DNA of 64,000 nucleotides, from positions 112,224 to 176,223 of the forward strand of contig CAZSSP010000003.1 of assembly GCA_964609695.1 (NCBI GenBank), given 5' to 3'. The stretch's first letter is position 1; every line of letters begins with the position of its first letter. Below are positions 3,876 to 61,892 of the stretch, one piece after another. Source of the DNA: an uncultured Bacteriovoracaceae bacterium. Lineage in GTDB: Bacteria; Bdellovibrionota; UBA2428. Position numbers and translations under genes: made by a program. The notes beneath the pieces were generated by a model, which did no database searches, had not been told where the DNA came from, and saw only the letters and a program-made list of their open reading frames with translations.

Positions 3876-4735
3876 TAAATGAATCTCCTCAGGCAAAATC
3901 GAAAAATGATTCCTAAGGCCACAAAGGGAGCGCAAATGTATTTTTTAGGTCCCGCCCATTTTAGATAAAATTTCCACATTCCCTGATGATGATATATGTC
4001 GGGCCAAAGACTGTGTCCTTCGGAAGATCCTTTGATAGTGTGAACGACGTCAATTTTAGGAAAATACATTACAGGAATATTGAGTTGTTGTGCTTTGCGA
4101 CCTAAATCGACGTCTTCAACATAGAGAAAGTAGTTTTCATCAAATCCATTAAGAGTTTTCCATAATGAGGCCGTACAAAAAAGTGCACAGCCGCTGACCC
4201 AATCAACCTGTTGAATTTTATTTGGGTCGATGTCAGATTTTAAAAATTTTCGACTCCAAGGGTTTTGGGGCCAAAGTCTGCTTAGATAACCTTCTCTTCC
4301 AAATAGTGCAGTTAAGCTCCCTGGGAAATTGCGGGCGCTTGCTTGCCGAGAATTTTTAGTGGCGTCATTGAAGACTCTTAATCCAATTAGCGCATTTAAG
4401 CTTAGCATCTCATCGAATATTTTCTGCGTGATTGGGCTAGCGAGAAAACCGTCGGGATTTAAGAAAAGAAAAGCACTCGGGTTTAGAGTGCTTTTTAGCT
4501 GAGCCGCTTTATTGGCGGCTTTCGAAAAACCAAGATTTCCTTCTTGGCCCTTAAGTATAATTTTATGGCGGAATCGAGGATGATTTTTTAAATATTCTTC
4601 AACATATTTTGAGTCATTAGCGTTATCCCAGAGAACGATTTCTGAAGGAAAATCTATATAGCGCTCTAGCGAATCTAAAAAATCAATAAGAGTGTCTCTG
4701 TTGTTATAGAGAACAGAGACAATTCTAAGACTCAT
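3875..4735 (-). CDS. Family 2 glycosyltransferase (rhamnosyltransferase-like)
   Basis: MSLRIVSVLYNNRDTLIDFLDSLE...IVLWDNANDS GT2 signature. ATGA overlap with the upstream UXS-like gene. Confidence 0.65.
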   Translation of the reverse strand: MSLRIVSVLYNNRDTLIDFLDSLERYIDFPSEIVLWDNANDSKYVEEYLKNHPRFRHKIILKGQEGNLGFSKAANKAAQLKSTLNPSAFLFLNPDGFLASPITQKIFDEMLSLNALIGLRVFNDATKNSRQASARNFPGSLTALFGREGYLSRLWPQNPWSRKFLKSDIDPNKIQQVDWVSGCALFCTASLWKTLNGFDENYFLYVEDVDLGRKAQQLNIPVMYFPKIDVVHTIKGSSEGHSLWPDIYHHQGMWKFYLKWAGPKKYICAPFVALGIIFRFCLRRFI

Positions 4736-30629: not shown

Positions 30630-30947
30630 TTAGTCATCTTCTTTATCGCAACAAAACATATTATCGCCATATCCGTCGTGAGGATCCAATGGGTGGCAAG
30701 TTGAAGCGTTAGATTTGATCATCTGGGCTTTAGACATCACCTTGCAATCGGATTCTTGATCTTTCCACTTTTTAACCTGTTCCTTAGAGGGTTTTGCGGC
30801 CTCTTCATATTGCATGGTTTCATTTATTTTTTCTCTATCCCACTCTTGCTCGTGCCCAACATGTTTAACCTTTGTCTGGTTTTTTTTCGAAGAACAAGCT
30901 GTTATGCTGATTAGGGATACAATGAAAAGGGTGAGGACTTTTCTCAT
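30630..30947 (-). CDS. Small lipoprotein
   Basis: MRKVLTLFIVSLISITAC lipobox. Cys-rich C-terminus (CHP...CCDKEDD). Confidence 0.35.
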   Translation of the reverse strand: MRKVLTLFIVSLISITACSSKKNQTKVKHVGHEQEWDREKINETMQYEEAAKPSKEQVKKWKDQESDCKVMSKAQMIKSNASTCHPLDPHDGYGDNMFCCDKEDD

Positions 30948-30968
30948 AACTTCTAATTTTACAGACTC

Positions 30969-33386
30969 ATGAAGAATGTCCAACATATATTTTGGTCGAA
31001 CGGAAAAAACACTTTAACGCTTGACACCCTGCTCTGGAAGTTTCCGCAAAAGCTCTTAGCTTCACTGAATCTAAAAGAACTCCAAGTCTCTATATATAAT
31101 GCTCTAGTTCTGGATTGGGGCGATGCTCCCGTTGCGGATTTAGAAGAAATTAAAAACTGGATTCGATGCGGATCAAATTTTCAGTTTGTAGATAAATATC
31201 CTACATTTGCTTTAGAGTTTAGATCTAAAAGTTCCTTAGCTCAGGAGCTTCCTACGCTTTTATTAAGTAATTTTCAGCACGGAGCTCATTCAAGCCCTCA
31301 TTCTATTTATCAAAGTAAAATTCTCGAATTTCATTTTACAGGGCCTGAAGGAGAATCCCTATGGGAGAAAATTCTTGAAGCATTAAAAAAGCGCCCCAAT
31401 CTCAATACGCTCTGGGATCCAGTTGTAGAAGAAATGCGCGTAGTGAAAGATTCTAAATATGATTTCTGGACTTTTTCTCGAAATGATTTTTCTCAGTGGA
31501 AGGATATTCAAGCAATAATCGAATCTGAGTATGAAAATCAAGAAACTCATCCCTTAAAAAATCATCATTTGCTTATCGAAAAACAAAATGCACAAGAAGA
31601 AGCTCGACCTAGATATGTTCAAAATCAACTCGCTAAGGATCTTTGGAGTAATTTGTATGGTAAAGAATTTAAAGCACAGGCTGATTTTTTATTTTTTAAA
31701 CCTAAAAAGTGGAAGTTGAGGCAGTTCTCAGAATTTTCACCTAAAAGAGTACTAGCTAAATCCTTAGCGTTGTCTGGAAAACCTTTAGGAAATTTTGTTG
31801 AAATTGAAATCAATTCTGTTTTCCCTCGTGTTGAGAGCCTCAGTTCTTTGCCTGTTTCAAGTCAACGCTTTTATAATCAAAAGAATGGTGAACACTTATT
31901 TTTTGTGGGCCCTTGGGATTCTAATAATAAGGTTGTAGAGCAATCTGTTGAAAAGTGGCTTCAAGCTAAACCCGATCTTCTTATTAGAGGAATTCTTTGG
32001 GATTCATCTGAAAATTGGGTGTATTCGTTGTTAGAAACAGTTTTCAAGCTTCCTGGATGGCGTTTCGAGAAATCTGCATTTATGAATTTCTTAAGTGCCG
32101 TTAGTGAAAAGTCCTATTCATCAAATTATTTAATTTTCTGGGGAGAAATTAAAGAAATCACTCAATTTCAAGATGGAACATTTCCCGCTGGTTTAAAAGC
32201 TGGAATTTTAGGGTCTCGTGATCGCGATGGAGTTTATCAAGTCGATGCTTTTGAAGAGTCTGCTTCGTTTTTTTCAAAATTAAAATCAGATCTTAAAACT
32301 GGAAGTGATCCAAATTCTTTAGCTAGTAAATTAAAAACAGTTATTCGAGAAAATCCTCAAATTAAAGCCGCCTCATATGGCTACGATAGGGCGTCAGCGT
32401 TTCCAGATCAATATAGCTTAAAGGCGCATGTGGTCGCACGTGGGACCAATCAAGAGTGGATTGAGTCTCTGTGGTTAAATAGAACCGGATCTAAAATTTG
32501 GTCTACTACTATGGGATCCTTTTTTAATATCGCTAGTAATTCAAGAAAAGTGGCTACGGGTGAAAATTTAAATGTCGTAGCTGGGCAGCGTCTGCGTGCT
32601 TCTTGGTCCCATAACCCCGCTAAGAGTGCGGCTATTTTAATCGATGATGCCTTGAGGTCACTATTATCTCAGGGGGCTTCTCTAAAACGTATCAGCGTTA
32701 ATTTATGGATTGGATATGGCCGAAGATTATCGGGCCCCACTCAAGCTTCATTAAGTTTATTTTTTGAATCGTTTAAATCAAATTTATTAAAATTAGGGAT
32801 GAGCTTAGATTCTTTAAAAATGTCGCCTATGGCTCATTCGGAAGGCTTAGACGCATTTTTAATGCTGCAATCTCAAGAAGGATTATTGGAGCCTCAAGAT
32901 TCATTTTCTGGGTTTAGAATGGAAGAGGAAAGCATTTATTCTGTGGGGCCTAGACCCTTTCAAATGGAGTCGGGAAGTACGGTGCTTCGTTTTGTGCGAG
33001 TTTATTCTAATTTTGTTTCTTCCATTGAAGTTGAAAAGCAAATACAACTTTATCATCGCTTATCAGAACTTCAGAGAAAGGGAATCATATCTTCATTATC
33101 TAGCGTAACAGAAAGGGGTATAGCTGGATCTTTGTTAAATATGTCACTCTGGGGATCTCGTGGCGCGCAATTGCGACCAGGTTTGTCTTCAATAGAATTG
33201 TTTAGCGCAAGTCCTGGTCGATTACTTGTAGGTGTTCTGCCTCAAGATGCAAAAACTTTTGAATCTGAATTAAAAGGTGAGCAAGTATTAATGGTTGGAA
33301 CTGTTAAAGGGGATCGACTTTGGGGTTTAAAGTTAAGTGAAATGGTGAAGGTCATGACAGATTATGAAAAAGATCATATTGCTTAA
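30969..33386 (+). CDS. Divergent PurL-like (FGAM synthase / PurM-fold) protein
   Basis: C-terminal SVTERGIAGSLLNMSLWGSRGAQLRPG...ELFSASPGRLLVGV resembles the PurM C-terminal-domain consensus (HDVAEGGLG..LAE...LFSESQSR.V..V). WSHNPAKSAA is a weak echo of the E(S/T)HNHPSA motif. Confidence 0.45.
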   Translation: MKNVQHIFWSNGKNTLTLDTLLWKFPQKLLASLNLKELQVSIYNALVLDWGDAPVADLEEIKNWIRCGSNFQFVDKYPTFALEFRSKSSLAQELPTLLLSNFQHGAHSSPHSIYQSKILEFHFTGPEGESLWEKILEALKKRPNLNTLWDPVVEEMRVVKDSKYDFWTFSRNDFSQWKDIQAIIESEYENQETHPLKNHHLLIEKQNAQEEARPRYVQNQLAKDLWSNLYGKEFKAQADFLFFKPKKWKLRQFSEFSPKRVLAKSLALSGKPLGNFVEIEINSVFPRVESLSSLPVSSQRFYNQKNGEHLFFVGPWDSNNKVVEQSVEKWLQAKPDLLIRGILWDSSENWVYSLLETVFKLPGWRFEKSAFMNFLSAVSEKSYSSNYLIFWGEIKEITQFQDGTFPAGLKAGILGSRDRDGVYQVDAFEESASFFSKLKSDLKTGSDPNSLASKLKTVIRENPQIKAASYGYDRASAFPDQYSLKAHVVARGTNQEWIESLWLNRTGSKIWSTTMGSFFNIASNSRKVATGENLNVVAGQRLRASWSHNPAKSAAILIDDALRSLLSQGASLKRISVNLWIGYGRRLSGPTQASLSLFFESFKSNLLKLGMSLDSLKMSPMAHSEGLDAFLMLQSQEGLLEPQDSFSGFRMEEESIYSVGPRPFQMESGSTVLRFVRVYSNFVSSIEVEKQIQLYHRLSELQRKGIISSLSSVTERGIAGSLLNMSLWGSRGAQLRPGLSSIELFSASPGRLLVGVLPQDAKTFESELKGEQVLMVGTVKGDRLWGLKLSEMVKVMTDYEKDHIA

Positions 33387-34017
33387 AGGGCCTGGGTTAT
33401 TAGATTATTCTGAAATCGCATTTCTATTTGAGTCTCCTGACGTTAGTTTCGAAACCATAGAAATTAATGCATTTAGTTCAGAGCACCCTCGTTTTTCAGA
33501 TTTAAAATTTGATGGATTGATTTTTGGTTCTCCATATTTTTTTAGTCCCGAAGAAGCTCTTTGGGTTCGTTTGTTAACGAAAAAAATTGCACCACTTTTA
33601 GACAATTGTTGGGAGTCTAACGCTAAGGTTTTAGCGATGGGACGTGGTGCTTTAGTGTTTTGGGAATGGATGCTGGCTGATCGTTGGAAAAATTGGAAGG
33701 TTTTTGAATCCGCTGGTGTCGATGATTCTCTTTTAGAGTGCGAATTTTTTATTAGGGGTGAATGGAAGGCTTTGCGTTGTGGTCGTTTCAGTACTGACTT
33801 TATTTTACCAGAAACTAATGATTTCACGGATTGGGAGTCATTTTTAAGAAATTCAGGAAACACATTAGGTTGGGTGACTCGTAATTGCTATATCACTTTA
33901 GTGGATTTGCTTGCTTTTATGAATTCGGCTCAATTAGAATCTTATGGTTATTCGACTGATATTGAGCCCGGGGACTTTGCTGGGACCATAATTGAGGATA
34001 TTTTTGAATTAAAATGA
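33364..34017 (+). CDS. PurQ-like class I glutamine amidotransferase homologue, probably catalytically inactive
   Basis: KKIILLKGPG...FDGLIFGSPYFFSPEEAL...KVLAMGRGALVFWEWM parallels the PurQ/PurL glutaminase layout, but the nucleophile Cys position (GxCNG) reads AMGRG. Overlaps the upstream gene by 23 nt. Confidence 0.4.
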   Translation: MKKIILLKGPGLLDYSEIAFLFESPDVSFETIEINAFSSEHPRFSDLKFDGLIFGSPYFFSPEEALWVRLLTKKIAPLLDNCWESNAKVLAMGRGALVFWEWMLADRWKNWKVFESAGVDDSLLECEFFIRGEWKALRCGRFSTDFILPETNDFTDWESFLRNSGNTLGWVTRNCYITLVDLLAFMNSAQLESYGYSTDIEPGDFAGTIIEDIFELK

Positions 34018-35402
34018 GAAGCAGAGAAGAAGTTTTTGAAGATTGGAAAAAAAAATCCCTTCAGGATTTTTGGTTAATTTCTCAAGAGTTCTTTTCTTCT
34101 GATTCCGATTTTGTAGAGTTATTAGATAGAGTTTCCTACCAAGTAAAAAAGGGTAAATTAAGAAGCAGTGTAGAGTGTGACCGCTATTTGTTTTCACTTT
34201 TCCTTAAAACATTAGGTCAAAAAAGAAGAGCTGTTACTGAAAAAATTTATTTATTAGCATTGTTTAAGCTCAATTGGCCTCTTGAAAAGTTGTCTTCATT
34301 AACACATGAATATACTTCGAAAATAAAGTTTGTAGTCACTCAATCTTTAAAAGATAGGGTTTCTGTAGAGTTGAGCTCTAAAAAACTAACTCAGGATTGC
34401 TGCCGGGCCGATCTTTTTTTGGTGGATTATTTATTTGAGCGATCTTGGAAGCTTCCTTTTAAGGAAAATTTTAATCTTTTAACACTGAAAAATCATTTAA
34501 AATCTTGTGAACGTTGTCAGGCTGTGGTGGGTGCTGCCGAGGGAATTAAATCGCAAGTTGTTTATCAAGATATTAAAACATTTGAATATCAGTATCCCTT
34601 TACAAAAAAGATAAGCAAAAACAAAGTTCTCAAAAGTTTTGAGTTTTATCAGAACTTTTCATTGCATTGGAAGGGCTTAATTCAGATTCTACTTTCTATA
34701 GTATTAGTTTTTTCTATTGCGACAATTCCATTTGTTGGTAAATTTCTCATAAAACAACAACAAGGGGCTCAGTCTGAGGGCGAAGCAAAGAAAGCTGCAG
34801 TTGAAAAGCTTGATGCGACTTGGGTTGATTTAGCTCTCGAGCGTGATTTAATCTCTCCTCCTTGGCTTGTGAGTGAGCAACATGATAGCCCTCAGATTTC
34901 ACCTCTAAGTAAATTTTTAAATAATTATAAAGCAGAAGAAATAGCGCTTTCTCAGAAAAAAGAGACTGTTGATGTAGAGGCCCCAAAAGTGCAGGCTCCT
35001 CAGGTGGCTAAGAATGATGGCCCTAAAAACGCAGTAGTAGAAGTTGTAAAAGCGGATATTAAAACACGCTCTGAAATTGAAGAAGAGAATGCAGCAGAAT
35101 CTGATAATCAGTGGGTATTTTATAGGTGGGGTGCTTACGCTGAGGATCTAGACGTGATAGTTCCGAAAATTTTGAGCGTTCTTGAAATAAATCAAGCGGA
35201 AAAAGCCGGAGAACTAGATTTGGGTGCTGAGTATCGTGGTGGCCGCTATTTTCACTTTTCCATTAAAAAAGAGTTAATGAGAAAAGTTGTTGATGAATTA
35301 AAGACTTTAAAGCTTGAAGGATTTACAAAAGTTGAAGCAAAGTCAGACCGTAAAAATAAAGAAGGTCATTCAAGAATAGTCTTTCTACTCAAGCAAAAAT
35401 AA
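34014..35402 (+). CDS. Single-pass membrane protein with ZAS-type (zf-HC2) anti-sigma zinc-finger motif
   Basis: DCCRADLFLVDYLFE...(31 aa)...NHLKSCERCQ gives C...H-x3-C-x2-C. Central TM (LIQILLSIVLVFSIATIPFVGKFLI). ATGA overlap with the upstream gene. Confidence 0.4.
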   Translation: MRSREEVFEDWKKKSLQDFWLISQEFFSSDSDFVELLDRVSYQVKKGKLRSSVECDRYLFSLFLKTLGQKRRAVTEKIYLLALFKLNWPLEKLSSLTHEYTSKIKFVVTQSLKDRVSVELSSKKLTQDCCRADLFLVDYLFERSWKLPFKENFNLLTLKNHLKSCERCQAVVGAAEGIKSQVVYQDIKTFEYQYPFTKKISKNKVLKSFEFYQNFSLHWKGLIQILLSIVLVFSIATIPFVGKFLIKQQQGAQSEGEAKKAAVEKLDATWVDLALERDLISPPWLVSEQHDSPQISPLSKFLNNYKAEEIALSQKKETVDVEAPKVQAPQVAKNDGPKNAVVEVVKADIKTRSEIEEENAAESDNQWVFYRWGAYAEDLDVIVPKILSVLEINQAEKAGELDLGAEYRGGRYFHFSIKKELMRKVVDELKTLKLEGFTKVEAKSDRKNKEGHSRIVFLLKQK

Positions 35403-35430
35403 ATGAAAAGCTTGCTCATGATTTTGAGTT

Positions 35431-35689
35431 TTAAATAAGGTGATTAGTATTTATATATTTTTCCCTAAGAGTTGTTGGGGGTGCGGCCGTAAGCGTGCGT
35501 TAACAATTCTATATTAGCTTTACCGAAAGACACGGCAGGGCACCCCCTTCCTCAGGTCTTCGCCTAATGGCTCGACCTTCGGGAACCCCGAGTGTCTTTC
35601 GGTAAAGCTAATATAGAATTGTTAACGCATGCCGATGGCGCGGAGGAACTCTTAGGGAAAAATATATAAATACTAATCACCTTATTTAA
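35431..35689. repeat. About 260-bp nested perfect inverted-repeat element (41-bp outer arms plus 37-bp inner arms) between convergent genes
   Basis: 35431-35471 is the exact reverse complement of 35649-35689. 35497-35533 is the exact reverse complement of 35592-35628. An asymmetric internal loop separates them, with a 58-nt GC-rich centre carrying small hairpins. Confidence 0.8.
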
Positions 35690-35726
35690 AGAGTAAACCC
35701 ACTAATAAGCTTTTCGTTTTTTTTGC

Positions 35727-37538
35727 TTAAGTGCTTTTGATTATATTCAATCTTAAATCGGCAAGCTGATCGCTGCTAACCGGTGACGGGCATTCACTCA
35801 TTAAACAAAGTGAAGAAGCCGTTTTCGGAAAAGCGATAACATCACGAATGCTAGAGGTTCCAGCTAGAACCATAATAAGTCGATCAAAACCAAAAGCGAT
35901 ACCGCCGTGAGGAGGCGTTCCATATTTTAAAGCTTCTACAAAAAATCCAAATTTTTGAACAATTTCTTCTTCGCTAAGTCTCAAAGCTCTAAACATGGCT
36001 TTTTGAACTTCAGAATCATAAATTCTTAGACTACCGCCAGCAACTTCATAACCATTAAGGGCTAAATCGTAGGCCTGTGCTCTAACATTCTTAAGCTCTT
36101 CAATGTCTCCTTTAAGAAGTTTAGGAAGATCTTCATCGTTGGGGCGTGTGAAGGGGTGGTGAGCCGCACCTAATTGTTGAGTTTGAGGGTCGTATTCAAA
36201 TAAAGGAAATTCTGTAATCCAAGTGAAGACCCATTTATCGCTGATTCCTTCCTTAACTAAACCAATCTCTTTAGCTAGATGCTGACGAAGGGCTCCCATC
36301 GCTTGATAAATTCTTGGGGCTTCGGCGGCACCTAAGAGAAGATAATCACCTTCGGAAAGACCCCATTTTTTAGTTAATTCACCCTGTAAGTTAGCATCAA
36401 AAAATTTGGCTATAGGAGAATTCCACTGTCCATCTTTAATTCGAATCCAGGCGACCCCTTTGAGTCCAAATGGGCTGACCACTGGATTGAAGTTCTCAAG
36501 GTCTTTGCGAGACCATTCCGGTAGCGCAATCTTTTCTTCTTTGAGTTCATTTTGAGTGACTTTAATCCCAATAACTTTACCGCCAGCCGCGACAACGCTT
36601 GAGAAAACTTTAAAATCACATTTTGCGAAGTTATCGCTTAGATCTTCGAGTTTTAATTTGTATCGTAAGTCGGGCTTGTCAGAACCATAGACCGACATGG
36701 CTTCTTGGTAATCCATCCTCTTAAATGGAATTTGAAGATTGACGTTGAGCACTTCTTTCCAGAGTTTTTGGACAAATCTTTCCATAATTGAAAGGAATTC
36801 GTCTTGAGATAGAAAACTAGCTTCCAAATCTATTTGAGTAAATTCAGGTTGGCGGTCGGCTCTTAAGTCTTCATCGCGAAAACAACGAGCAATTTGAAAA
36901 TAACGTTCGAATCCGGCAATCATAAGAAGTTGTTTAAGAGTTTGGGGCGACTGTGGAAGTGCAAAAAAGCTTCCATGATAAACTCTGGAGGGAACTAAGT
37001 AATCTCGAGCACCCTCTGGAGTGCTTTTATAAAGGATAGGGGTTTCAACTTCTAAAAATCCTTCCTCACTAAAGAATTGGCGGGTGAGCTGAAGAGCCTT
37101 ATGGCGTGTTTGTAATATTTTTTGTAATTGAGGACGTCTTAAATCCAAATATCGATACTTTAAACGAGTGTTTTCATGCGCGCTGTCGCTAGATTCATCA
37201 ATAGAGAAGGGAGGGACCTCAGCTTTTGCGAGTACATTAAGTGCAGTGACTTCAACTTCAACTTCGCCACTAGCAATTTTTGAATTAATCATATTGTCTG
37301 GACGAGCTTTTACAATTCCAGAAATTTGAATAACAAATTCACTTCGTAATTTTTCAGATTCTGCTAAGTTTTGGGGTAAGACCAACTGGCAAAGACCAGA
37401 ACGGTCACGAAGATCAATAAAACTGACTCCTCCGTGATCTCTTAGGCGATTAACCCAGCCGCAAAGACGGACTTCTTTACCGACAAGTGTTTTGTCGAGG
37501 GATGAACATGAGTGTGTACGATATGGATAACGGGACAT
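35727..37538 (-). CDS. aspS: Aspartate--tRNA ligase
   Basis: 603 aa. Class II aaRS motifs (FRDEDLRADRQPEFTQID, GGSLRIYD, GFDRL). N-terminal OB anticodon-binding domain. Confidence 0.95.
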   Translation of the reverse strand: MSRYPYRTHSCSSLDKTLVGKEVRLCGWVNRLRDHGGVSFIDLRDRSGLCQLVLPQNLAESEKLRSEFVIQISGIVKARPDNMINSKIASGEVEVEVTALNVLAKAEVPPFSIDESSDSAHENTRLKYRYLDLRRPQLQKILQTRHKALQLTRQFFSEEGFLEVETPILYKSTPEGARDYLVPSRVYHGSFFALPQSPQTLKQLLMIAGFERYFQIARCFRDEDLRADRQPEFTQIDLEASFLSQDEFLSIMERFVQKLWKEVLNVNLQIPFKRMDYQEAMSVYGSDKPDLRYKLKLEDLSDNFAKCDFKVFSSVVAAGGKVIGIKVTQNELKEEKIALPEWSRKDLENFNPVVSPFGLKGVAWIRIKDGQWNSPIAKFFDANLQGELTKKWGLSEGDYLLLGAAEAPRIYQAMGALRQHLAKEIGLVKEGISDKWVFTWITEFPLFEYDPQTQQLGAAHHPFTRPNDEDLPKLLKGDIEELKNVRAQAYDLALNGYEVAGGSLRIYDSEVQKAMFRALRLSEEEIVQKFGFFVEALKYGTPPHGGIAFGFDRLIMVLAGTSSIRDVIAFPKTASSLCLMSECPSPVSSDQLADLRLNIIKST

Positions 37539-37590
37539 GTTGCGGGATTCTACTTGCTCTTTGGCCGCCTTGTCACTATTTTGATAAAGG

Positions 37591-38883
37591 ATGCAGTCTC
37601 TTTCTAGCCAACCCTATAAAGGGTCACGGGATTTTTATCCCGCTGATTTTAAACGACGACAATGGATTTATGAAACTTGTGCACGAGTCCTAAGGGGCTT
37701 TGGATATCAGGAATACGATGGTCCACTTTTAGAGTCTTTTGACTTATATGCAGCAAAGTCGGGGCAAGAGCTCGTCGATCAGCAACTTTATTCCTTTTTG
37801 GATCGTGGCGAAAGAAAAGTTGCGATCCGGCCTGAGATGACTCCCACTTTAGCTCGTATGGTGGCTGCTAAATTGGAAGAAATTCCTAAACCTGTAAGAT
37901 GGTTTAGTTTTCCTAATGTTTGGAGATACGAGCGACCTCAAAGGGGCAGGCTAAGAGAGCATTGGCAGCTCAATGTAGATGTTCTTGGGGGTGATGCCAC
38001 CTGGGCTGAGACTGAAATTCTTGAAATCGCTGGTTCCTTATTTAAAAGTTTTGGAGCTCAGAAATATGTTCGTTTTAGGATCAATCATCGCGCCCTGATG
38101 GACGCTTTTTATACTCAACAACTTTCACTAAGTTCTGAAATTATTCCTGCCCTTTCTAGAATTTTAGATGGAAGAGAAAAGATGAGTTCTGAAGTTTTTA
38201 TTCAAAACTTAGAGAAAATCCAGTTAACTGCCACTCAAATTGATAAAGTTCAGTCATTTATAAGCTCGGATTTGTCGCAAGCCACTCAATTGTGTCCTTG
38301 TCCGGCTGCGGAACATCTCAATATTCTTTTTGAAAGGTTGTCTAATACCTCAACTCCTGATGTTTATCATTTTGATCCGTCTATCGTTCGGGGGCTGGAT
38401 TATTATACTGGAGTGGTTTTTGAGGCCTTTGATGTTTCTCCGGAAAACAATCGCGCCCTTTTTGGAGGGGGCCGATACGACAACTTGATGGGGCTTTTTC
38501 ATAAAAATAAAAGCCTTTCTGGTGTGGGTTTAGGCATGGGCGATGTGGTTTTAAGTGATTTTCTGGATTTGCATAAGTTGTGGCCTGATTTGAATCAGAA
38601 AAATCAAATTTTTATTTCATGCCCCGATGATCAATTCTACAATGATGTTTCTAAACTTGCCGTATCTCTGAGAGACTCCGATTTGTCCGTTATGACTTCA
38701 TTGGGGTCTGGATCTTTTAAAAGTCAATTGAAGCAAGCCGATCGATTGGGCGTTCGCTGGATTATACTTTGGGGCGAAAATGAGAAAAAATCTAATCAAG
38801 TTTTAGTCAAAGAGCTTTCCACCGGATCTCAAGATGCTGTTGATATCGGCCAATTGCTCCAGTGGTTTAAATCTCGTTGTTAA
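37591..38883 (+). CDS. hisS: Histidine--tRNA ligase
   Basis: 430 aa. PYKGSRDFYP N-terminus, motif 2 region WRYERPQRGRLREHWQ, GGGRYDNL motif 3. Confidence 0.9.
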   Translation: MQSLSSQPYKGSRDFYPADFKRRQWIYETCARVLRGFGYQEYDGPLLESFDLYAAKSGQELVDQQLYSFLDRGERKVAIRPEMTPTLARMVAAKLEEIPKPVRWFSFPNVWRYERPQRGRLREHWQLNVDVLGGDATWAETEILEIAGSLFKSFGAQKYVRFRINHRALMDAFYTQQLSLSSEIIPALSRILDGREKMSSEVFIQNLEKIQLTATQIDKVQSFISSDLSQATQLCPCPAAEHLNILFERLSNTSTPDVYHFDPSIVRGLDYYTGVVFEAFDVSPENNRALFGGGRYDNLMGLFHKNKSLSGVGLGMGDVVLSDFLDLHKLWPDLNQKNQIFISCPDDQFYNDVSKLAVSLRDSDLSVMTSLGSGSFKSQLKQADRLGVRWIILWGENEKKSNQVLVKELSTGSQDAVDIGQLLQWFKSRC

Positions 38884-58180: not shown

Positions 58181-58270
58181 TGGCGGAGAGGGTGGGATTC
58201 GAACCCACGTAACCCTTGCGGATTATCCAGTTTTCAAGACTGGCGCGATCAACCGCTCTGCCACCTCTCC
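58181..58270 (-). tRNA. tRNA-Ser (anticodon UGA)
   Basis: Minus-strand sense GGAGAGGTGGCAGAGCGGTTGATCGCGCCAGTCTTGAAAACTGGATAATCCGCAAGGGTTACGTGGGTTCGAATCCCACCCTCTCCGCCA. 7-bp acceptor stem, anticodon loop CTTGAAA, long variable arm, GTTCGAATC T-loop, encoded CCA. Confidence 0.85.
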
Positions 58271-58452: not shown

Positions 58453-58552
<100 letters not shown>

Positions 58553-61816: not shown

Positions 61817-61892
61817 TCGCTGGTAGCTCAGTTGGTAGAGCAGGTGGCTGTTAACCACCTTGTCGCAGGTTCGAGTCCTGCCCAGCGAGCCA
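61817..61892 (+). tRNA. tRNA-Asn (anticodon GUU)
   Basis: TCGCTGGTAGCTCAGTTGGTAGAGCAGGTGGCTGTTAACCACCTTGTCGCAGGTTCGAGTCCTGCCCAGCGAGCCA. Canonical cloverleaf with encoded CCA. Confidence 0.9.

Follow-up and report, generated by a model that had tools for sequence, protein, structure and literature searches.

The palindrome lies within a 64,000-nucleotide stretch of DNA, analyzed as a whole and referred to here as the window, at the point where a three-gene operon and aspS converge. The convergent arrangement given in the initial annotation was confirmed: the operon ends at 35402, and aspS occupies 35727–37538 on the minus strand. The operon belongs to a conserved cluster (30630–35402) in which a 118-aa gene on the minus strand is followed by genes for proteins of 805, 217, and 462 aa on the plus strand. 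The 805-aa protein has a weak PurL/AIRS_C-like C terminus and nothing more; the 217- and 462-aa proteins have no match in Pfam, NCBIfam, or PADLOC, and neither the 805- nor the 462-aa protein has a match in the PDB. Only three clusters of homologues of the 462-aa protein were found among 5.8 billion proteins. The gene cluster adjoins aspS/hisS in every case, down to relatives at 26%–27% identity. The features of the junction are as follows.

34014–35402, plus strand: last gene of the operon (462 aa), whose last 16 nt, stop codon included, belong to the outermost imperfect arm
35387–35429, unstranded: outermost imperfect left arm, ∼85% complementary to 35691–35732
35430–35473, unstranded: outer left arm, 44 bp, perfect complement of 35647–35690; AT-rich, with a sequence that varies by copy and strain
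35474–35496, plus strand: module A (GTTGGGGGTGCGGCCGTAAGCGT), GC-rich and conserved; pairs with module B via G.U on the plus strand only
35497–35533, unstranded: inner left arm, 37 nt (GCGTTA to GACAC), with a variable sequence that covaries with that of the right arm
35534–35591, plus strand: core, 58 nt, GC-rich and conserved, with three predicted small hairpins
35592–35628, unstranded: inner right arm
35629–35646, plus strand: module B (CATGCCGATGGCGCGGAGG in the window), GC-rich and conserved
35647–35690, unstranded: outer right arm, 44 bp, perfect
35691–35732, unstranded: outermost imperfect right arm; holds an eight-T run (35717–35724) and the aspS stop codon (35727–35729)
35727–37538, minus strand: aspS (aspartyl-tRNA synthetase), convergent with the operon

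Recomputation of the repeat layout bore out the nested palindrome of ∼260 bp that had been placed at 35431–35689 and made it slightly more extreme. Both pairs of arms are indeed perfect, with corrected lengths: the outer arms extend over 44 bp rather than 41 bp and the inner arms (35496–35533 and 35592–35629) over 38 bp rather than 37 bp. The spacers between them are non-complementary and asymmetric, as described, and measure 22 nt (35474–35495) and 17 nt (35630–35646) in place of the 25 and 20 nt given before. The centre is, as noted, a GC-rich segment of 58 nt (35534–35591) with small hairpins. A UUCG tetraloop that had been read into it was not upheld, as these bases fall, in the consensus fold, within a hairpin of 5 bp and a 3-nt loop. 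Weaker symmetry (85%–88%) continues out to 35387–35732 and takes in the stop codons of both the 462-aa gene (35400–35402) and aspS (35727–35729), so that the palindrome occupies the entire 324-bp convergent gap together with both stop codons. Gaps at the other convergent junctions in the window measure 3–150 bp, and none holds such a hairpin; the arms, the core, and module A each occur once in the 64 kb. The predicted RNA fold has an energy of −166.4 kcal/mol for the plus strand and −160.7 kcal/mol for the minus strand (z = −18.9 and −21.0, respectively, against dinucleotide shuffles), and none of 200 shuffles was equally stable. A fold so far beyond shuffles, together with the family of copies and the covariation described below, leads us to reject a chance hairpin.

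One genome for each of 185,579 species was scanned with a 20-mer from the core. Three of the nine matches were due to chance and fell in GC-rich coding DNA; the other six are copies on six contigs of a single metagenome-assembled genome (MAG), ‘Proteobacteria bacterium Gw_Eff_bin_446’ (JAGNHS01, GCA_018001635.1). The question of whether the element recurs elsewhere is thereby answered, with at least six copies in this related MAG and one in the window. A scan of metagenome contigs with a 19-mer from the core gave nine matches, which were attributed to chance as they have a GC content of 52%–68% and are without the architecture of the element. The genome and metagenome scans indicate that the family is real, multi-copy, and narrowly distributed.

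Loci at the same site were gathered from contigs that encode homologues of the 462-aa protein. Ten of these (L001–L010), from five JGI metagenomes and several Logan runs, represent the window locus in near-identical strains. The element was found at the same site in five of them (L001, L002, L004, L005, and L006), in a lineage with 93% protein identity to the window (L014), and in the MAG, one of whose copies (L020) is orthologous to the window locus, with 93% DNA identity. For a copy at a second locus (L023), orthologues were found in L035 and L039, and the window-like species carries the element at no fewer than two loci (L001 and L035). The L023/L035 copies have a methyltransferase-like gene on one side and, convergent with it, a gene for a 316-aa protein on the other. 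In the distant relatives L015 and L016, the order of operon, aspS, and hisS is kept and the element is absent, as merely 6–20 bp separate the operon from aspS. The element is missing only in such very distant relatives, and both loci that could be compared are filled in all close lineages. The palindrome thus represents the long form in a family of hairpin elements that is both dispersed and lineage-restricted.

A covariance model built from nine copies was run on the window and 20 other loci and detected no additional copies, diverged ones included. By blastn, the element had no match among 72,556 plasmids or 50,697 phage records, and scans of viral contigs with the core and module A were also negative. 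A 17-mer from the arm matched three viral contigs, none of which was matched by the covariance model. No Rfam family matched the element at the gathering threshold; the best matches at E up to 10, mir-641 (19 bits, threshold 100) and the OppA thermometer (15.6 bits, threshold 290), were discarded as artefacts of the long hairpin. Within the window, the only Rfam matches at the gathering threshold were two tRNA genes and the small SRP RNA (58184–58270, 58456–58552, and 61817–61889). ARAGORN found no tRNA-like gene in the element. A literature search, both by description and by sequence strings, returned no earlier report of such an element.

Every copy contains the core, GGCAGGGCACCCCCTTCCTCAGGTCTTCGCC-loop-GGCTYGACCTTCGGGAACCCCGA, whose conserved flanks (...AAGACAC/GTGTCTT...) lead into an AT-rich stem. 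Over the ten copies compared, the only part of the core to vary is the middle hairpin, in its loop and at two adjacent positions. Seven copies are long forms (the window, L001, L014, L020, L018, L023, and L035). In all of these the length of the inner stem is conserved (36–37 bp), and it is flanked 5′ by module A (GTTGGGGGTGCGGCCGTAAGCGT) and 3′ by module B (CATGCCGATGGCGCGGWGR), beyond which lies a second AT-rich stem, of ∼44 bp. The span between equivalent anchors is 271 nt in six of the seven and 269 nt in L018. The short forms, L019, L022, and L024, consist of the core and a single stem only. The AT-rich stem differs in sequence in each copy, with complementarity kept. Module A, in turn, is identical at 23 of 23 positions over the four copies at the aspS locus and nearly so in the other long forms, and module B is identical at 15–17 of 18 positions among the aspS-locus copies. 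The stems act as spacers, and the core and modules are what is held constant.

Two possible sources of the GC-rich modules were considered. Derivation of the core or module A from 16S rRNA, with which they have CCTTCGGGAACC and TGGGG.GT.CGGCCG.AAG in common, was rejected because local and chained alignments were no better than those of shuffles (p = 0.13 to 0.66). Modules A and B together are weakly similar to a split antisense core (p about 0.06); that they arose in this way, by nested self-insertion of one element into another, is speculation.

Several G.U pairs contribute to the pairing of modules A and B. The sense of the core is defined here as the strand that reads GGCAGGGCACCCCC. To compare the strands, minimal constructs in which A and B were joined by a GAAA loop were folded in both senses. 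In seven of seven long copies, the core-sense strand gave the more stable A/B helix, by 9–17.5 kcal/mol over the antisense strand; pairing is retained in L018 with the conserved G.U pair moved by one position. The preference of the helix for the sense strand implies that the selected structure is a single strand of defined polarity, and these predicted energies point to a functional form that is probably single stranded, either RNA or ssDNA. The strand asymmetry does not separate the two, because G.T pairs are tolerated in ssDNA hairpins as well. A double-stranded, cruciform-forming site, one of the roles first suggested for the palindrome, is unlikely given that the 58-nt centre is not palindromic and the module helix is strand specific.

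Comparison across copies, which had been recommended as a check, gave clear evidence of covariation. In the nine-copy alignment, 95.3% of cells are paired, and 25 of the 41 inner-stem pairs have changed on both sides; none of 500 shuffles attained any of these measures, and sliding the structures by one to three columns reduced the pairing to 34%–50%. Over ten copies, the stem pairs comprise 650 Watson-Crick pairs, 23 G.T pairs, 10 A.C pairs, and 18 other mismatches; the surplus of G.T over A.C counts among the signs of strand specificity. The three small hairpins of the core never vary and hence receive no support from covariation.

The rate at which the different parts change can be set against the divergence of the flanking genes at four-fold sites, which amounts to 22% (window/L020), 28% (window/L014), and ∼21% (L038/L035). 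Over these distances, the core is identical at 55–58 of 58 positions and module A at 23 of 23, whereas the inner stems differ by 8%, ∼21%, and ∼38%. The identity of core and module despite neutral divergence indicates that the GC-rich modules are under strong constraint, and the stems drift at approximately the neutral rate while staying paired. The element has been inherited vertically at two or more loci. The perfection of the arms had been taken as a sign of recent origin or of selection. Same-site inheritance across lineages with 21%–28% four-fold divergence does not support a recent origin; the perfection instead reflects arms that evolve together. Between L023 and L035, for example, both arms carry ∼14 of 37 substitutions as well as an 8-nt indel. 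Mirrored indels and the many A↔T swaps point to copying between the arms at the level of DNA, by template switching or gene conversion, and not to selection on independent compensatory mutations alone. Such copying could yield the same covariation pattern as selection on RNA.

The genomic positions of the copies bear on a possible role in termination. Four of the six loci (the aspS locus, L019, L022, and L023) lie between convergent genes. L024 is between co-directional genes and on their sense strand; the neighbors of L018, ABC-F and cupredoxin genes, are also co-directional, and both run opposite to its sense strand. An intrinsic terminator that is simply oversized and serves the operon and aspS in both directions would agree with the location of the palindrome between convergent genes. 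It would also agree with the bases that follow the outermost stem in the window, eight T on the plus strand and a T-rich run on the minus strand, which make termination plausible there. The other copies, however, have no T tract, so this is not a property of the family. At L022 and its counterpart L042, the element is placed between two canonical intrinsic terminators, each with A tract, hairpin, and T tract (L042 4436–4474 and 4695–4707), that belong to its convergent neighbors, an M48 peptidase and a glyoxalase gene, so that no read-through is expected at that copy. In a distant relative (L041), a GC-rich hairpin terminator alone (4680–4720) is found at the same M48 peptidase/glyoxalase junction; the lineage does use ordinary terminators. 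Moreover, the remaining convergent junctions of the window manage without such a hairpin, distant relatives make do with the few base pairs noted above at the operon/aspS junction, and the invariant 58-nt core would be left unexplained. A terminator is therefore a very unlikely explanation for the element. The earlier remark that the palindrome is far larger than a terminator needs to be holds, as an invariant core and copies lacking a T tract go beyond termination. A scan for promoters upstream of the copies found none that is conserved, and promoter-like matches occurred at chance level.

Strains that are otherwise indistinguishable differ at the element. Between the window and the L001-type strains, there are no differences over 426 four-fold sites, and almost all of the 88 mismatches in the 9-kb alignment fall inside 35404–35735. 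Relative to the window, L014, and L020, everything between the outer arms is inverted in L001, L002, L004, L005, and L006, which indicates that the element can flip through recombination between its arms. Even after flipping, the intergenic identity between the window and the L001-type strains is just 82.6%. The inner stems and core loop of the window correspond to those of L020 (34/37, 32/37, and 58/58), and those of L001 correspond to L014 (37/37, 37/37, and 57/58); the outer arms of the window differ by ∼23% from all other copies. The alleles of the element are thus discordant with the phylogeny of the flanking genes, which in these alignments may reflect either exchange localized to the element or an old polymorphism. 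The variation does not stop at the intergenic region. The final two codons of aspS read K-S-T-stop in the window (35727–35735) and K-N-S-stop in L001 (4662–4670), and such a difference between strains identical at four-fold sites means that the variable palindrome tract extends into coding sequence.

The inversion raises the question of an invertible DNA switch, in which the nested inverted repeats would serve phase variation. No promoter lies inside the invertible part, however, no recombinase gene was found in the flanks examined, and unrelated loci show the same architecture; the k=31 contig L008 is the sole evidence that one sample holds both orientations. We consider such a switch highly improbable. 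In L008 (Logan SRR23702517), the core is opposite to its own modules and the contig ends inside the core, and several contigs break at the inner arm. This flip of the centre alone is probably an ambiguity of the k=31 assembly graph, the inner arms being longer than k, although it could be real.

The inversion between strains is also in keeping with a palindrome without function, selfish or neutral, whose arms remain paired through internal gene conversion and inversion and whose GC-rich modules remain alike through conversion between copies. The perfect arms of the window, the indels and transversions mirrored in both arms, and the lack of any promoter or terminator logic common to all copies fit this explanation as well. 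Conversion within a genome, however, cannot account for a core and modules that are identical between species. Conversion from arm to arm should, in addition, erase the G.T mismatches and the asymmetric A/B loop that are conserved in all long forms, and the interior is of equal length in six of the seven long copies, with L018 only 2 nt shorter. A functionless palindrome is accordingly judged improbable.

Dispersed hairpins are known from other genomes. ERIC/IRU, Correia (NEMIS), RUP, and other bacterial MITEs are imperfect palindromes of 100–300 bp that occur in transcribed intergenic regions and form long RNA hairpins, and some of them affect mRNA stability or are cut by RNase III. The proposal that the palindrome is a MITE-like element stands as far as its multiple copies are concerned and falls with respect to the classical form. 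MITE copies have common terminal inverted repeats and target-site duplications, whereas in the present family only the core and modules are common to the copies and the arms are specific to each. Presence/absence polymorphism among close relatives was seen at neither of the two loci compared. TTTAA/TTAAA-like sequences at the edges, which had been suggested as target-site duplications, are part of the arms (TTTAAA is itself palindromic), and no direct repeat flanks any copy. Fungal mitochondrial genomes, which are AT-rich, contain mobile GC clusters and double-hairpin elements, multi-copy GC-rich hairpin modules in AT-rich intergenic DNA. Unlike the family described here, these are organellar and shorter and have neither long co-evolving AT-rich stems nor nested modules.

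In Gammaproteobacteria, REP/BIME and REPIN (RAYT) sequences are dispersed intergenic hairpin repeats, often located between convergent genes and mostly inherited vertically, which fold as ssDNA or RNA and serve as targets of insertion sequences (PMC1525189). A REP has a conserved palindromic stem and a variable loop; in the palindrome family it is the stems that vary, and the 58-nt tip, which is not palindromic, and the internal loop that are conserved. No short palindromic unit is present as the conserved repeat, since the core is non-palindromic and the palindromic parts are unconserved. About six copies were seen, as opposed to tens to hundreds for REPs, and no RAYT is known for the host lineage. 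Integron attC sites are similar in that structure is conserved over sequence, the stems are variable, folding is strand specific, and there are unpaired features. In attC, however, short boxes (GTTRRRY) at the base of the stem are conserved and the tip is variable, the reverse of what is observed here, and GCGTTAAC / GTTAAYGC does not fit GTTRRRY. The sites of attC lie in cassette arrays beside intI, whereas the neighbors of the present element are housekeeping genes (aspS, the lysS region, and others). The family lacks the defining features of MITEs, REPs, attC sites, and every Rfam family and resembles them in being a dispersed intergenic hairpin.

The main alternative to the explanation favored below is a non-autonomous mobile element whose movement, like that of REP/REPIN-RAYT, IS200/IS605-derived, or attC systems, would depend on an ssDNA hairpin formed by one strand only. 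A recombinase or transposase encoded elsewhere would recognize the core and modules, and pairing would be all that is required of the stems. Dispersal in multiple copies to intergenic ‘safe’ sites, between convergent genes or terminators, an orientation independent of neighboring genes, and the strand-specific fold are all consistent with mobility, as is the replacement of alleles between otherwise identical strains. The nested form could come from self-insertion, for which the weak likeness of A and B to the antisense core (p about 0.06) may be cited, and in L036 foreign DNA is joined exactly where the outer arm meets module A. Nevertheless, both comparable loci are filled in all close lineages over 21%–28% neutral divergence, with no filled/empty polymorphism at either. 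There are no common termini or target-site duplications, and conservation is found at the hairpin tip instead of at the ends. Copies long resident at a site would be expected to decay, but no decay is seen in the core, which is invariant. An unsystematic look beside the copies noticed no transposase gene. A mobile element is possible and, on this balance, doubtful.

The junction in L036 (1600–1849), which represents the species and locus of L035, consists of the left outer arm (...TTTCTTGGAGTTGT) followed by unrelated sequence (CCACATGTGGCGGGAAGATCCCGCGAGG...), and the join falls precisely at the boundary between outer arm and module A. The foreign sequence had no match in plasmids, in the window, or in the other loci compared. 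It could represent an insertion, an alternative cargo, or an assembly chimera.

Long-stem RNAs (RNase III-cut stalks of rRNA processing, 6S, Y, and SRP RNA) are likewise rod-like, with covarying spacer helices and conserved loops, and this likeness is the basis for the explanation that we favor, a putative role at the level of RNA, in which the element would be a structured RNA module with stems for processing or presentation. We hold it at somewhat less than even confidence. Among the candidates put forward at the outset, a structured RNA is the leading, though unproven, one. The compensatory changes and strand-specific fold of such an RNA are present; no promoter or terminator of its own was found. 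Under the RNA model, read-through from the operon or from aspS, depending on the current orientation, would produce a rod-like hairpin of 260–340 nt on which the core and the A/B loop are exposed as modules for recognition or processing. The long perfect duplexes would be likely substrates of RNase III, whose cleavage could free the core hairpin, with a stable stem remaining at the 3′ end of the mRNA. The window copy might secondarily act as a barrier to read-through between the operon and aspS. Perfect arms would be maintained by template switching or gene conversion within the palindrome, in addition to selection for pairing.

Several observations count against the RNA model. Apart from having no Rfam match, the family differs from the long-stem RNAs in being multi-copy and variable in orientation. 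No conserved promoter precedes the copies, the sense strand of L018 is opposite both of its neighbors, L022/L042 is enclosed by terminators, and the orientation at the aspS locus varies between strains. Mirrored indels and A↔T swaps in both arms, moreover, come more easily from copying at the DNA level than from selection on RNA. In more general terms, we tentatively suggest that the family is a hitherto unrecognized class of element structured as a single strand, whether a hairpin-homing mobile element or a processed non-coding RNA, whose function would reside in the 58-nt apical domain and the internal loop, spaced by helices of arbitrary sequence, and whose palindromic DNA would make inversion, arm-to-arm gene conversion, and allele exchange between lineages locally frequent. 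If it is a functional RNA, the element would constitute a new structured family with unusually clean comparative support from an uncultured, poorly known lineage of Pseudomonadota, the lowest rank at which the organism was placed. A mobile or selfish hairpin, for its part, would reverse the logic of bacterial palindromic repeats, with a conserved tip and free arms. In either case, a long palindrome with co-evolving arms and a flipping interior survives in a compact bacterial genome, and its replacement by recombination while the surrounding genes are identical at four-fold sites bears on how palindromes shape local recombination.

Two further observations concern the contigs themselves. Within assembly GCA_020050275.1, contigs L039 and L042 are 99.9%–100% identical to the MAG and the aspS-locus contig L014 is just 94.5% identical, so the assembly seems to hold at least two related strains or species. 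The genes aspS and hisS are divergent in the window (35727–38883) and in L015 (9557–12833) and co-directional in L016 (9402–12535), a difference in orientation which indicates that hisS has been inverted in part of the lineage.
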